Position numbers and translations under genes: made by a program. The notes beneath the pieces were generated by a model. That model was not told the origin of the DNA, ran no database searches, and saw only the letters and a program-made list of their open reading frames with translations. From an uncultured Gammaproteobacteria bacterium (GTDB lineage Bacteria; Pseudomonadota; Gammaproteobacteria; UBA9214), in contig CAWHCQ010000009.1 in NCBI GenBank assembly GCA_963827755.1, positions 32,001 to 96,000 on the forward strand: a stretch of DNA of 64,000 nucleotides. The letters are read 5' to 3'. Positions 19,887-24,825 of the stretch are shown in pieces; positions within the stretch are counted from its first letter, which is position 1; every line of letters starts with the position of its first letter.

Positions 19887-20255
19887 CTAGTCGCCCTTCT
19901 CTTCCAGCACGCCTGCGGGCAATGTGTAGGGTGTGGCTGCCAGCAGGCTCCCCTGGTAGATGAGACCCGGACAGGGATGGTCGAAATCAACCTGGTGGTA
20001 AATAAATTCGAATACATCGTCCGCCCGGTCTTCCTCGACAACAATAGTGACCACGCGTACCGAATAGGCGGCGACCTGTCTTTTTCTCTTGTATTTCCGG
20101 CGCATCTGCAGACCGAACCCCCGGCAGAGAGAGGTATTTGCCGTGATAATGCCTTTCTTTGTTCGCAGCACCTTGAGCAGTGCCATGTCCTGACCTTCAT
20201 CAGGCAGGATGCAGGTGATAAGTTTTGCCTCTGGAAAATCCTGCAGCCGGGTCAC
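19887..20255 (-). CDS. PII-like protein (divergent)
   Basis: KLITCIL..RGFG..VVTIVVEEDRADDVFEFIY..PCPGLIY; overlaps the upstream PII gene by 4 nt. Confidence 0.7.
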   Translation of the reverse strand: MTRLQDFPEAKLITCILPDEGQDMALLKVLRTKKGIITANTSLCRGFGLQMRRKYKRKRQVAAYSVRVVTIVVEEDRADDVFEFIYHQVDFDHPCPGLIYQGSLLAATPYTLPAGVLEEKGD

Positions 20256-20641
20256 GCGCCGTCCCCGTGATGTTTCTTTTCCAGTTGTTCAAGCACTTCT
20301 TCGGGGATATAGGTGGCCGCTTTATCCAGCGGCGTGACATACATGAAGCCCATGCCCGGCGTGTCCAGCTGGCCGGCCAGGTAGATGTTGTTGAATACCG
20401 TTTCCAGTTGCTCGCTGGAGACAACGATGTTGACCACTTCCTTTTCGACTTCCACGGCGACGCCGAGTATGCCAAGCCGTTCCCTGACGCCGCTGCCCCT
20501 GGCATAAAAGATCGTCGCGCCCTGGGCGCCGGCTTCCTGGGCCGCCTGGACGATGGTATCGCCCAGGCCGCGTTGCACGATGCAGGTTATCAGGCGCACA
20601 TCGGTCAACAAGGTGATGCTGTGTCTTGTTTTGTTTGTCAT
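20252..20641 (-). CDS. PII-family signal transduction protein
   Basis: ITCIVQRG..AGAQGATI..ARGSG..EKEVV..PGMGFMYV. Alternative coupled start at 20665. Confidence 0.85.
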   Translation of the reverse strand: MTNKTRHSITLLTDVRLITCIVQRGLGDTIVQAAQEAGAQGATIFYARGSGVRERLGILGVAVEVEKEVVNIVVSSEQLETVFNNIYLAGQLDTPGMGFMYVTPLDKAATYIPEEVLEQLEKKHHGDGA

Positions 20642-20664
20642 GAGTGAATGTTCCCGGGTCGGCA

Positions 20665-22413
20665 TTATTGCGCAGTTGCCACGGCTGCCGTTTCCAGGCG
20701 TGCCCTCAGCCGAAACCACAAGCCGGTTGCCAGCACTGCAAGGATGGGCCCGATCGAGGCCATGGACAGCATGCCGAAGCCTTCCACCACCTGCACCGCA
20801 TCGCCGACGCCCAGCCCCATGGCCAGTACCAGCGGTACGGTAACGGGGCCGGTGGTCACTCCGGCGCTGTCCCAGGCAATGTTGACGAACTCCTCGCTGG
20901 ACAGCAAGGTGAGCACGATTGCCAGCAGGTAGGTCGGCAGCAACAGCCAGGCGAGCGGCAGGTCATAGATGATCTTGACCATTCCCAGGGCGATGCCGAA
21001 GGCGACCCCGCCGGAGACGGCGTACATCAGGGTGGATTTTCTGAATACCCCCTGGGTCAGGTTCTGCACGGTGAGCCCGAGGGTGTTCAGCGCCGGTTCG
21101 GCCAGGGTGGCGCCGAAGCCGAGAAACCAGGCGAATACCAGCACCAGGCCGAGGCCGATCGTGTAGAGATACAGCGGCGAGGTTTCAACCGCGGCAATCT
21201 GGGTAAACGCTGCCGGCAACAGGCTGCCGGACTCGCTGCCCAGCCTGGACAGTCCGTGAGTCAGTCCCAGGTTGAAGATGCAGATGCCGGCCACTGTCAG
21301 CACGATGCCATAGCCGATCATGCCGGCGTGCCTGATCTTTTCAGCCAGCACCAGTTTCATCACCAGGTAAAGGAACAAAACGAGCGGCAGGATGGCACGC
21401 AGGCCAAGCACGATTTCCCTGCCGGGCGTCGTCTCGTACCAGGCCGGCACGGCCGCAGACTGGCCGCCGGCCGTGGCGGCCAGCATGATGGACTCGACGG
21501 GGACTGCGGCAGTGACGTAAATGGCCAGGCCGAGCACCCCGATGACGGGAAACAGGGAGGCCAGCGTGACAATGCCGAAGCCGGAGAGGCTTGCATTGCC
21601 TTTGCCTGTCGAGGTGGCGATGCCGATGCCCAGGGCAAGGACCAGCGGCACGGTGACCGGACCCGTGGTGACTGCACCGCAGTCCCAGGCGAGCCCCAGC
21701 ACCTTTTGCAGTTCGGGATGGAACGCGGCATACAGCGACAAACCCAGTGCCGGGACCAGGGTGAGATAAATCATCGGCTTGAGACTCCAGCCATAGAGGA
21801 AGCGCAGGGTACCCAGCACCGCGGCCAGGCCGACACCGCAACCCACCACCAGCACCAGGGCACCGGACCGGTCATTGAGAATGGTGTAAAGATAGGGCGC
21901 GGTCTCCACCGCAACGAGCCGGCCCGCGATCTTCAATGCGCCGATGGCCGGCTCCGCCAGGGTAACGCCGACACCGAGCAGAAAGGTAATGGCCAGGACG
22001 ACCGGCAATGCCGATTTGCGCGGCAGGGTATGGCCGATGATCTCGCCAAGCGGCATCAGCCCCAGCTTCAGTCCCTCCATGAACAACATCAATCCAATGA
22101 TCACGCCGAGCAACCCGAAAGCCATGCTCCAGGGTTCACTGACGACCTGGTTGAGAATAAAGACCAGGAACAGGACCAGGTAGGCAGCCAGCGGGATCAC
22201 GACCCTGAACTGCTCCATGAAACGACCCCGGGCATGGGTCTTGATCAGGCGAAAGATATCGAGGGGGCTTAATGTAACCGGCGGCGCAACATGGGGAATG
22301 ATTTTTCCGTTGGCGTCGAAGCTGACGTCAGGCGTGAGCAGGTTGTAGCTAACCTGGTGCTCGACCAGAGAGACATTACGCAGGTATTCACTGTAGCGGA
22401 TGGTGTCTGTCAT
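20665..22413 (-). CDS. DUF1538 membrane protein (two fused DUF1538 domains)
   Basis: TLAEPA and AWD(C/S)xxVTTGPVTVPLVLA motifs each occur twice. Confidence 0.9.
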   Translation of the reverse strand: MTDTIRYSEYLRNVSLVEHQVSYNLLTPDVSFDANGKIIPHVAPPVTLSPLDIFRLIKTHARGRFMEQFRVVIPLAAYLVLFLVFILNQVVSEPWSMAFGLLGVIIGLMLFMEGLKLGLMPLGEIIGHTLPRKSALPVVLAITFLLGVGVTLAEPAIGALKIAGRLVAVETAPYLYTILNDRSGALVLVVGCGVGLAAVLGTLRFLYGWSLKPMIYLTLVPALGLSLYAAFHPELQKVLGLAWDCGAVTTGPVTVPLVLALGIGIATSTGKGNASLSGFGIVTLASLFPVIGVLGLAIYVTAAVPVESIMLAATAGGQSAAVPAWYETTPGREIVLGLRAILPLVLFLYLVMKLVLAEKIRHAGMIGYGIVLTVAGICIFNLGLTHGLSRLGSESGSLLPAAFTQIAAVETSPLYLYTIGLGLVLVFAWFLGFGATLAEPALNTLGLTVQNLTQGVFRKSTLMYAVSGGVAFGIALGMVKIIYDLPLAWLLLPTYLLAIVLTLLSSEEFVNIAWDSAGVTTGPVTVPLVLAMGLGVGDAVQVVEGFGMLSMASIGPILAVLATGLWFRLRARLETAAVATAQ

Positions 22414-22452: not shown

Positions 22453-23592
22453 CTACCCTTTTTTATGTTCGACTGCGCGCCGGCTTTGCGAGTAGCTCCG
22501 CCAGACCTGCAGCTGGAGTGCGCCAAGCCCGAGGACGAACAGGACGAACACCGCAAGGCCGCCGACCACGGGAATAATCTGCACCAGCAGGAGCGCCAGC
22601 AGCGCGAGCACAATGGAGAACACGCGCAGACCCTTGCCTGCGGTTTTCGCCTTGCCGGTGAGACGCAGGCCGGCGTCGCCCACGTAGATCACGCCGCTGA
22701 GGAATCCGCCGAGCAGGGACACCGAGTACCAGGCAAGCAGGGGCAACGCCACCAGCATGCCGATCACGCTGACCAACAGCAGCAGCACCACGAAGGGGGT
22801 GGCGAACAACACGGCAACGCCGATACCCAGCGCGGTAAGGGGTGATCGCCGCAGGCCATCGGCGCCGGCCACGCTGAAGGCCGGGAACAGCAGGTAATAG
22901 ACGCAGCCCGCCACTGCCAGCGCCACAAGGAAAACGAAACCCGCACCCCTGCCCTGCGGTTCCTTGTAAAGCACAGGCCTGGCAATGATGTCGCCCTCGA
23001 TCACGGCCCCGGCGGCAATGTGCGGTTTATTGTCGCTGCGGTAGACCAGGTTTCCCCTGAGCCTGGCGCCAGGAAAAATGCGGATTTCTTCGGCCATGAG
23101 TTCCACGTCGCCCGCGACGTCGGCAGAGACCGTCACGGCCTGCGCCGCCACCTTGAGTTCCCCGCCCACCTGGCCGGCCACGTTCACTTCCCGCCCCGCA
23201 AGCCACGCCCACCCGCCGATGGTCGCAGCCGGCGTGATGTTGACGGTCTCACCGGCGGCGACGACATGACCCGCGACCAATCCTGCGATGCTGACGGAGC
23301 GCCCGGCCGCGCGCACATCGTCGTCGACCCGTGCCCGGACCGTCACGGTCTCGCCGGCAACCAGCACATCGCCGCCCACCGATTCATCGATCGTGACGCG
23401 ATTCCCCGCCGCGACCACATCACCCTTCGCCTGTGCCATCACATCCACGCTGCGACCGGCAACGTACAGGTCATCTTCTATCGTGCCGCGCTTGACCACC
23501 ACCTCCCCGGTCTCCTGTGCAAACAACAGCGACCCGGTCGACAGTGCAATCAGCAGGCCAGGCAGTGTCCAGAATCTATGACGGTTTCGCAT
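22453..23592 (-). CDS. Membrane protein with beta-helix (bactofilin-like) repeats
   Basis: Signal peptide, repeated VxGDVxxAGxxVxI units, then multiple TM helices. Confidence 0.75.
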   Translation of the reverse strand: MRNRHRFWTLPGLLIALSTGSLLFAQETGEVVVKRGTIEDDLYVAGRSVDVMAQAKGDVVAAGNRVTIDESVGGDVLVAGETVTVRARVDDDVRAAGRSVSIAGLVAGHVVAAGETVNITPAATIGGWAWLAGREVNVAGQVGGELKVAAQAVTVSADVAGDVELMAEEIRIFPGARLRGNLVYRSDNKPHIAAGAVIEGDIIARPVLYKEPQGRGAGFVFLVALAVAGCVYYLLFPAFSVAGADGLRRSPLTALGIGVAVLFATPFVVLLLLVSVIGMLVALPLLAWYSVSLLGGFLSGVIYVGDAGLRLTGKAKTAGKGLRVFSIVLALLALLLVQIIPVVGGLAVFVLFVLGLGALQLQVWRSYSQSRRAVEHKKG

Positions 23593-23605
23593 CGCAGGGT
23601 GCGAC

Positions 23606-24016
23606 TTATTCCGGCACGCCCTGCCAGAGCATCTGGTAACCCAGTTCGTAGGTCTCGTCGCAGAATTCCGCCAGCGCCTGGAATTTCTCCTTGAATATGG
23701 TGTCGGCGTGCGATTTCTCGTGCTGTTCGAACGACTTCCAGAAAGTCACGATGGCCAGCTCGCCCTGCTTGATCTTCGCGGCGGTCTCGTTATCTTCCGG
23801 TGACTCGCCAACCGTACCCTCTTCGGAAACAAAACCGGAATACTTGTAGACCTGCCCTGCGATGAAGCCGCCATTCTCGTCGCCATAGGTGTTTTTCACG
23901 ACATTGCACATCTCGCCCAGAGCCAGCTCGACGTCTTCAACAGTGACACCGTCCTTCAGGTCAACCACGTTGAACATCATCACGCAGCCGAAGGGTATTT
24001 CAATGGGTGCAAACAT
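23606..24016 (-). CDS. Hypothetical protein, Dabb/ABM-type fold, similar to the sulfur oxygenase reductase N-domain
   Basis: RBS GGAG; motifs GEMCNV, TFWKSFEQHEKSH, YELGY. Confidence 0.6.
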   Translation of the reverse strand: MFAPIEIPFGCVMMFNVVDLKDGVTVEDVELALGEMCNVVKNTYGDENGGFIAGQVYKYSGFVSEEGTVGESPEDNETAAKIKQGELAIVTFWKSFEQHEKSHADTIFKEKFQALAEFCDETYELGYQMLWQGVPE

Positions 24017-24111
24017 ATTCTTTCTCCGTTAGAGCCAAAAATCCAGGGGACAGTATACGCTACCCTGTAGGAGCGGATCTCATCCGCGATCATGGCCTTG
24101 ACCGATACGGA

Positions 24112-24825
24112 TTAACGCGGTGCACGCCAGGGAACAAGCATCGGCACGCGCGACTGGTATTCCCTGTACCTGTCACCGAGTGTTACCACCAGGTCGCGCT
24201 CTTCCAGCAGAGTGCCGGCAATAATCCACGCGCTCCAGAGCACGTTGAACAACAGGCGATCCGCCGTGAGGTCAGGCTGCGACCAGATCATCACAAGGAT
24301 AAAGAAGTATTGCGGATGCCTGACCCATCGATAGGGGCCACGTTCGTCGAGGCAGGCCAGCGGCTCTGATGTGCCGCGCAGATGACAGCTGATCGCCCGC
24401 AAACCGAAGATATCGAATGAGCGCAGCGCCAGGTTGCTCCAGACAATTCCACCGATTGCAGCCACGAACAGGACGCGCATTGCGAGGCGCACCGGGTCGT
24501 TCGCAGTTACCAGCACAGGCTCGGAGACCTGCCAGAGGAACACGACGCCATACAGGCATATTCCGGCGGCGATCGAGTAGGCGGCGCCGTGGTAGTACTC
24601 CGGGGCCAGGCTTGCAAACCACGCCTTGAACACGCGGCGAATCATGCCGCTGTGCTGGGCGAAGAAAACCGCTGAAAGACCCGCATCAAATACCAACACG
24701 GCTGTCGTCTGTTTACAGAAAACCAGCAGTTGCCACGGACCCGTGAAAAGAAAAACGGTAAACGCAACCAGTGCGGTAATTCCAAACAGTGCAGAGAGCA
24801 CCTGTGCAAGCCGGGGTCCGGACAT
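24112..24825 (-). CDS. Isoprenylcysteine carboxylmethyltransferase family, MddA-like S-methyltransferase
   Basis: FFAQHSGM, GPYRWVRHP, LEERDLV..Y.EYQSRVPMLVP. Confidence 0.75.
   Translation of the reverse strand: MSGPRLAQVLSALFGITALVAFTVFLFTGPWQLLVFCKQTTAVLVFDAGLSAVFFAQHSGMIRRVFKAWFASLAPEYYHGAAYSIAAGICLYGVVFLWQVSEPVLVTANDPVRLAMRVLFVAAIGGIVWSNLALRSFDIFGLRAISCHLRGTSEPLACLDERGPYRWVRHPQYFFILVMIWSQPDLTADRLLFNVLWSAWIIAGTLLEERDLVVTLGDRYREYQSRVPMLVPWRAPR

Follow-up and report, generated by a model that had tools for sequence, protein, structure and literature searches.

A candidate stand-alone homologue of the sulfur oxygenase reductase catalytic half in sulfur-oxidizing Gammaproteobacteria and in phages

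Sulfur oxygenase reductase (SOR; EC 1.13.11.55; Pfam PF07682; NCBIfam NF047630; Protein Data Bank (PDB) entries 2cb2, 6m35, 6qpa, and 7x9w) is a protein of approximately 308 residues that consists of two fused Dabb domains. It assembles into a hollow sphere of 24 subunits and carries out an O2-dependent disproportionation of sulfur, and its cysteines are located 9.5–13 Å away from the iron. In the available parts of the report PMC7398979, His86, His90, and Glu114 are given as its iron ligands, and activity is described as abolished in the mutants H86A, H90A, E114A, and C31A and as approximately 10-fold lower in C101A and C104A. Here, we analyze a gene in a 64,000-nucleotide stretch of contig CAWHCQ010000009.1 (assembly GCA_963827755.1) of an uncultured Gammaproteobacteria bacterium, referred to below as the window. 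The gene encodes a protein of 136 residues with one β-α-β-β-α-β unit in place of the two fused domains of SOR, and an initial annotation, made from the sequence alone, had proposed it as a minimal SOR-like enzyme. Sequence comparison supports a remote homology of the protein family to SOR, specifically to the N-terminal half, which is the catalytic one. Our preferred reading, which we put forward tentatively, is that of a stand-alone homologue of this catalytic half that would form a homodimer with mononuclear iron and oxygenate sulfane sulfur bound to cysteine, in the cytoplasm of Dsr-type oxidizers.

The likeness to SOR comprises the predicted Dabb fold, a long β2–β3 insertion, the motif T-x-W-x5-H-x3-H with equal spacing (histidines at Trp + 6 and Trp + 10), a glutamate on strand β4 within aromatic-E-x-x-Y, a cysteine on helix α1, a second cysteine aligned to C101, a Gly-Phe pair that opens β2, and the occurrence in sulfur oxidizers. 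Residues of the SOR C-terminal half that are invariant in our SOR alignment A3 (M297 and E298 among them) have no counterpart in the family, and the same holds for the chimney helix-loop (residues 125–152 of StSOR, as described in the available parts of PMC7398979).

Two further groups of the same fold serve for comparison. The ABM monooxygenases and cyclases (PF03992; SnoaB, 3kg0; RslO4, 7bio; ActVA-Orf6, 1lq9) are homodimers that use no metal, and they resemble the family in their single-domain size. The heme oxygenases IsdG, IsdI, and HmoA (NCBIfam PRK13313–13315) give weak profile matches to members of subfamily 1, one of the two subfamilies described below. The available parts of PMC4835899 give Asn6, Trp66, and His76 as the IsdG/IsdI triad and state that IsdG-like barrels act as homodimers.

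Relationship to the catalytic half of SOR

When all PDB sequences were searched with the family profile, 26 matches were obtained at an expectation value (E) ≤ 10. Nine of these were SOR, which took the first seven places (best E 0.019), and the other 17 were triosephosphate isomerases; no ABM, IsdG, or other non-SOR Dabb chain was reached at this threshold. The 34 members of the family alignment were also scanned singly against Pfam, where SOR was the most frequent match (11/34; best E 9.5e-5, 21.8 bits, for P0187 of subfamily 2), followed by Monooxy_af470-like (7), ABM (5, best E 0.001), and CT0912-like_C (5). Among the NCBIfam models, SulOxRed matched 4/34 members (best E 3.7e-4, spanning positions 7–106 of 308) and the IsdG-type heme oxygenase models matched 5/34.

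The SOR reference set for profile comparison was built from metagenome SOR genes, which were fetched by a DNA pattern derived from the SOR motif and led to 130 relatives, 34 of which were aligned (A3). By hhalign, the family matched whole SOR with 76% probability (E 2e-5), the SOR N-terminal half with 86% (score 39.2), and the C-terminal half with 17% (score 25.9). Control scores were 9.1–18.1 for 40 column-shuffled SOR N-terminal halves and 16.3 for the reversed N-terminal half. The N-terminal score and the seven leading PDB matches, all of them SOR, place the suspected resemblance above chance. The SOR strings cited in the initial annotation were confirmed in PDB SOR chains and metagenome SOR genes, in which the corresponding segments are AINMAELKN, GPKVC31MV, PGFVGFQ, YTFWKDWKDH86EEMH90, and PWE114PIY, and those quoted for the window protein (FNVVDLKD at 15–22, GEMC37NV, GGFIAGQ at 49–55, IVTFWKSFEQH99EKSH103, and TYE124LGY) are all present in the translation of the open reading frame.

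The residues G50/F51, T91, W93, H99, H103, C119, and Y127 of the family pair with G39/F40, T78, W80, H86, H90, C101, and Y117 of SOR, positions that, together with E114, are invariant in 34/34 SOR sequences, except for Y117 (33/34). The pairing of H99 and H103 with H86 and H90 is found in both the HMMER and the hhalign alignments. For the third ligand, the SOR string PWEPLY was aligned directly to TFEVVY of P0187 by HMMER, which places a glutamate on E114; in the window protein, E124 meets E114 only after an 8-residue gap in the hhalign alignment is shifted (Y127 pairs with Y117 in hhalign). The residues C37, H99, H103, C119, and E124 are kept in 120/120 close relatives and, among the cluster representatives that cover the respective site, in 88/89, 70/75, 67/71, 57/60, and 58/61. 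H99, H103, and E124 are invariant over both subfamilies (alignment A4), and C37, H99, H103, and E124 are kept in 15/15 viral copies, so that the four residues singled out by the initial annotation are near-invariant in both subfamilies and the phage copies. Taken by alignment, the data support a conserved putative 2-His-1-carboxylate iron site (H99, H103, and E124) together with candidate pocket cysteines (C37 and C119).

The AlphaFold2 model of the protein (from a 34-row alignment; predicted local distance difference test (pLDDT) 87.1, predicted template modeling score 0.79) shows one Dabb/ABM ferredoxin-like domain, with the elements β1 (12–20), α1 (26–44), β2 (51–58), a less confident insertion (59–86), β3 (87–93), α2 (96–116), and β4 (119–128). 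The predicted β-α-β-β-α-β arrangement is that of the Dabb superfamily, and 103 PDB chains matched the model at a Foldseek E ≤ 1e-3, with Z up to 13.6. Based on helix periodicity, H99, H103, and F96 would share one face of α2, and C37, L33, and V40 one face of α1; both faces are predicted to point into the ligand cleft of Dabb proteins. The β2–β3 insertion was aligned by hhalign to SOR residues 45–75 with a gap of only 2 residues.

Some of the names and profile matches would instead fit an IsdG/HmoA-type heme-degrading or heme-binding protein, a function that we consider highly improbable. A JGI cluster carries the name 'heme-degrading monooxygenase HmoA', the NCBIfam IsdG-type matches reach E 1e-4 (for P0123), and IsdI, IsdG, and MhuD are among the structural matches of the model (Z approximately 8.9–10.4). 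However, in the phmmer alignment of P0123 with IsdI, which is weak (E 0.24–0.37) but gap-free from β3 through both catalytic positions, with one single-residue gap upstream of β2, the catalytic Trp66 and the heme ligand His76 of IsdI fall on the conserved Ser102 and the invariant Phe112 of the family. The family residues H99 and H103 in turn fall on a Phe and a Leu of IsdI. As the catalytic residues of IsdI are replaced in the family, IsdG-type chemistry is unlikely, and the annotated recurrent neighbor families include no gene for heme uptake or bilins. A reading of N16, W93, and H103 as the Asn/Trp/His triad of IsdG was dropped, because the catalytic Trp of IsdI is not the β3 Trp in the alignment.

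Distribution among sulfur oxidizers and phage contigs

In a search of a 5.8-billion-protein set, 2986 of the 2990 scored candidates were relatives at E ≤ 1e-3. At the same threshold 229 of the 50%-identity cluster representatives matched, many of which are fragments or frameshifted calls. Two giant proteins among these representatives (P0173 and P0257) were rejected as spurious, being repeat proteins with weak per-repeat matches (approximately 10 bits each in P0173). The closest 120 relatives are 86–94% identical to the window protein, and those with a name are all called 'hypothetical protein'. Identity to the window protein is 50–94% in subfamily 1 and 32–41% in subfamily 2 (P0187, P0217, and P0229), and it is 70–90% among the named relatives, from Thiothrix through Thiodiazotropha. 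The protein had been claimed to stand alone, and we agree, because a search for longer relatives gave only two, both with unrelated Pfam domains, although in a search of this kind a lack of longer forms counts as weak evidence.

The source databases name the relatives 'hypothetical', 'ABM', 'heme-degrading monooxygenase HmoA', or 'ligand-binding protein SH3'. The last of these is an NCBI label on the subfamily-2 proteins P0187, P0408, P0409, P0412, and P0413, yet the model is a Dabb domain, and a full-text literature search returned no paper with the phrase. Full-text searching, which does not extend to supplements, likewise returned no paper on a single-domain SOR-like protein. Alvin_1688, annotated as 'antibiotic biosynthesis monooxygenase' in a transcriptome table of Allochromatium vinosum (in the available parts of PMC11267869), could not be tied to the family. 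The 90%-identity cluster of P0123 also lists many entries of 74–87 residues named 'ribosomal protein S21', which looks like an oddity of clustering or gene calling. The gene is real and under strong constraint, and it has neither a name nor a Pfam family of its own.

Relatives are encoded by at least 570 species genomes, as found with a narrower alignment (A5). The best 80 of these are mostly gammaproteobacterial metagenome-assembled genomes, in addition to Thiothrix, Cocleimonas, Leucothrix, Candidatus Thiodiazotropha, Sedimenticolaceae, SUP05, and Arenicellales; Sulfurisoma and Thermocrinis are further carriers among the cluster members. DsrA, AprB, and two SoxY proteins are encoded in the genome of the window (2.85 Mb, 92% complete), in which neither the RuBisCO large subunit nor a full-length SOR was found.

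To determine the distribution, we drew 301 genomes evenly from the class. Of these, 57 carry the family (from 52 of the 264 genera) and 93 carry dsrA; SoxY is present in 143 of the 300 genomes scored for it (G242 is without a score, and G285, included in the tally, is flagged as unpublished). Full-length SOR was found in 11 of the 301, which makes the family five times commoner in the sample. The family gene occurs in 51/93 genomes with dsrA, in 5/59 with SoxY only, and in 1/149 with neither marker. The sole carrier in the last group, G320 (93% complete), belongs to the same genus as a genome with dsrA. The distribution is therefore almost restricted to sulfur oxidizers, above all those with DsrA, and the link to sulfur oxidizers is a strong one. 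Of the 11 genomes with full-length SOR, seven also carry the family gene. The family further differs from SOR in that its carriers include mesophilic Gammaproteobacteria from marine habitats as well as phage contigs.

A divergent full-length SOR-like gene was observed in six of the sampled genomes (G043, G077, G164, G171, G210, and G267), with 204–218 bits against Pfam SOR, compared to 446–471 for canonical genes. These genes may form a separate full-length SOR subgroup.

Relatives with 51–68% identity are carried by 15 viral contigs of IMG/VR (L124–L138), and phage genes around the family copy were confirmed with PHROGs on three of them. On L125 (5911–6942), the family gene lies between a DNA polymerase exonuclease gene on one side and the genes for Hsp20, rIIA, and rIIB on the other, which is a T4-like arrangement. 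The neighbors on L133 encode a tail protein, a DnaB-like helicase, and a 2OG-Fe(II) oxygenase, and those on L127 a tail tube, a baseplate hub, and a tape measure protein. No tblastn match was found among GenBank phage records.

A possible sulfur oxygenase weighed against other functions

If the family does oxygenate sulfur, the protein would pair into a homodimer, as other single-domain Dabb proteins do, and each subunit would hold one mononuclear non-heme iron in the cleft between helices and sheet. Cys37 would accept sulfane sulfur in the form of a persulfide or polysulfide, and the iron would activate O2 for the oxygenation of this sulfur to sulfite or thiosulfate. Such a reaction would correspond to the oxygenase half of SOR chemistry, or to persulfide dioxygenase-like chemistry. 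As the 24-mer shell of SOR would be lacking, the substrate would probably be protein- or thiol-bound sulfur in the cytoplasm, and the protein may dispose of or process excess zero-valent sulfur in sulfur-storing, Dsr-oxidizing cells.

Several observations weigh against this reading, and the first of them concern the sequence. The membership cut-offs of SOR are missed even by the best-scoring member, P0187, with 21.8 against 25 bits for Pfam PF07682 and 19.6 against 400 for NCBIfam NF047630. The window protein itself, as a single sequence, has no Pfam or NCBIfam match at E ≤ 10 and chance-level matches only in the PDB sequence set, and it scores 12.5 bits against the SOR N-terminal half profile. 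C104 of SOR has no counterpart in the family, in which 8 residues fewer lie between the positions of C101 and E114, and C119 is replaced in two subfamily-2 members of alignment A4, by Ala in P0187 and by Val in P0229. C37 falls on C31 in the greedy and global hhalign alignments and is one helix position off in HMMER. Of the four-residue match to SOR that had been proposed, the two histidines and E124 (directly in P0187) thus stood, and the coincidence of C37 with C31 held only in hhalign. With one domain, scores below the cut-offs, and no C104, the family lies outside SOR as curated, and what may be shared is the chemistry.

The structural matches also point away from SOR. The best match to the model is RslO4 (Z 13.6, root mean square deviation 1.4, 97 residues aligned by VIA-align), followed by SnoaB (Z 13.3) and FasU (Z 12.7), which are likewise cofactor-free ABM/Dabb proteins. 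The SOR chains come behind these ABM enzymes (Z 10.5–10.6, root mean square deviation 3.3–3.9), and the aligner placed the model on their C-terminal half (residues 147–308), which does not bind iron; VIA-align shows only the best alignment per chain, so the missing alignment to the N-terminal half is no evidence against one. With ABM enzymes first and SOR lower and on its C-terminal half, structure alone does not single out SOR. The initial annotation had counted best hits among cofactor-free ABM/Dabb proteins as a reason to abandon its proposal; this is what the structural comparison gave, whereas SOR was on top in the sequence profile search.

These matches raise the possibility of a cofactor-independent ABM-type oxygenase or isomerase that acts on an organic small molecule (a quinol or a polyketide-like compound), with the histidines as acid/base groups and not as metal ligands. 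We regard such an enzyme as unlikely. It would fit the superposition of the core, to which olivetolic acid cyclase (Z 11.4–12.6 across entries) adds to give a range of Z 11–13.6, as well as the Pfam matches to ABM and Monooxy_af470-like and the label 'ABM' that one atlas cluster and UniRef give to relatives. However, the best ABM scorer, P0123, misses the Pfam cut-off (19.7 against 23.1 bits), and the family profile reaches SOR but no ABM chain in the PDB. ABM proteins align with 94–105 of the 136 model residues, compared to 122–126 for the SOR chains; the latter align the largest number of residues, and therefore only they cover the β2–β3 insertion, which the ABM proteins lack. The conserved C37, H99, H103, and E124 coincide with the catalytic set of SOR, and no biosynthetic or catabolic cluster lies near the gene in the loci examined.

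Gene presence and gene context provide the remaining points against a sulfur oxygenase. The gene is found in 14 of the 24 other species of the window's own genus and is missing from 10, and it is missing from 42 of the 93 sampled dsrA genomes, so that it does not belong to the core of the pathway. The counts of the distribution sample are, in addition, not phylogenetically independent. Among the loci examined (80 of subfamily 1 and 25 of subfamily 2), there is no conserved operon and no conserved sulfur-gene neighbor, and on contigs that carry both, a long distance separates the family gene from dsrA. Recurrent neighbors include stress and redox genes, namely those for Hsp20, DnaJ, DegP, AhpC/TSA, and thioredoxin. 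In subfamily 1, the most frequent neighbors encode generic ABC transporter proteins (ATPase or fused permease-ATPase; 15), thioredoxins (8), and LysR regulators (7). In four Candidatus Thiodiazotropha loci (L068, L071, L072, and L074), the gene lies between parB and atpI, in a gidA-gidB-parA-parB/atp region.

From this context, one might take the protein for a stress or redox protein instead, in which the cleft with His, His, Glu, and Cys senses or buffers metal, persulfide, or oxidant, or for a small redox enzyme of the heat-shock or oxidative stress response; we judge this improbable. In 8/25 subfamily-2 loci, a DegP-like gene lies upstream and the gene ends a same-strand run Hsp20 – DnaJ-like – Hsp20 – DegP/HtrA. 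Such runs were noted in L104, L110, L111, L115–L117, and L119, and in part in L113 and L118, and they hint at a heat-shock or proteostasis regulon. An AhpC/TSA-type redoxin gene starts approximately 19 nucleotides downstream in 5/80 subfamily-1 loci, a thioredoxin gene is nearby in the 8/80 mentioned above, and an Hsp20 gene directly follows the family gene on phage contig L125. Stress-related Dabb proteins of plants are also among the structural matches (At3g17210, Z 11.9; Populus SP1, Z 11.8). These contexts are those of a minority, however, as 17/25 subfamily-2 loci are without the DegP-led cluster and 75/80 subfamily-1 loci without AhpC/TSA. A stress function would leave the tracking of dsrA unexplained (51/93 against 1/149 genomes with neither marker), and the layout of the putative metal-and-cysteine cleft, which is that of a known active site, suggests catalysis.

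The claim of a minimal SOR-like enzyme is thus borne out as far as remote homology to the SOR catalytic half, the conservation of the residues, and the link to sulfur oxidizers are concerned, and it is opposed by structural top matches that are cofactor-free ABM/Dabb proteins. In its full form, that of a minimal, free-standing SOR catalytic unit which serves in the cytoplasm of Dsr-type oxidizers as a homodimeric, mononuclear-iron oxygenase of sulfur or persulfide, is far commoner than SOR, and is spread by marine phages as an auxiliary sulfur-metabolism gene, we consider the proposal possible but doubtful.

The gene in the window and the significance of the family

The open reading frame lies on the minus strand, which the initial annotation had not stated, and its features are listed in Table 1.

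Table 1. Features of the gene for the SOR-like Dabb protein, in positions of the window.
Feature	Position	Strand	Basis
Coding sequence, 136-residue one-domain SOR-like Dabb protein	23606..24016	minus	ATG-started open reading frame; approximately 2986 relatives at E ≤ 1e-3; AlphaFold model pLDDT 87.1
Shine-Dalgarno sequence GGAG, 7 nucleotides 5' of the ATG	24024..24027	minus	read from sequence
Codon of Cys37 (helix α1), candidate counterpart of SOR Cys31	23906..23908	minus	conservation and hhalign pairing
Residues 59–86, long β2–β3 insertion, block pLDDT 60–79 (lower confidence)	23759..23842	minus	model; length shared with SOR
Codon of His99, aligned to SOR iron ligand His86	23720..23722	minus	alignments and conservation
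Codon of His103, aligned to SOR iron ligand His90	23708..23710	minus	alignments and conservation
Codon of Cys119, aligned to SOR Cys101	23660..23662	minus	alignments and conservation
Codon of Glu124 (strand β4), candidate counterpart of SOR iron ligand Glu114	23645..23647	minus	conservation and alignments

Upstream, a terminator-like hairpin (24065–24048) separates the gene from its neighbor. Downstream, a gene for a 379-residue membrane protein (22453–23592) starts 13 nucleotides past the stop codon on the same strand. This protein, for which no Pfam match was obtained, begins with a signal-like segment, continues with a long V/G/A-rich run of short repeats, and is hydrophobic in its C-terminal half. 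Its relatives in L025 and L028 do not adjoin the family gene there. Further along the minus strand (20252–22413), a 155-residue P-II-like protein overlaps the end of a 582-residue DUF1538 membrane protein, a gene pair without an assigned function. None of the window neighbors considered (the 379-residue membrane protein, an ICMT-like protein, a Zn peptidase, and DUF1538) is syntenic with the family gene at other loci.

The GC content of the family gene is approximately 0.54–0.55 (window positions 23600–24200), compared to 0.62–0.68 in the flanking genes. A horizontal gain of the gene fits this low GC content, the patchy presence within the genus, and the phage copies.

Sulfur-oxidizing Gammaproteobacteria, among them SUP05, Thiothrix, lucinid symbionts, and groups from sediments, account for much of the sulfur cycling in the sea, and their pathways are thought to be well mapped. 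If the protein is a minimal SOR, an unrecognized O2-dependent step would be added to the textbook Dsr/Sox scheme, and the family would show what a single-domain ancestor of SOR may have looked like. Should it bind iron and turn over sulfane sulfur, it would be new both as a sulfur-cycle enzyme and as an auxiliary gene of phages, and it would offer a natural minimal model for SOR chemistry. Even if it has no iron or sulfur chemistry, it would still be among the better-conserved unknowns of these organisms.

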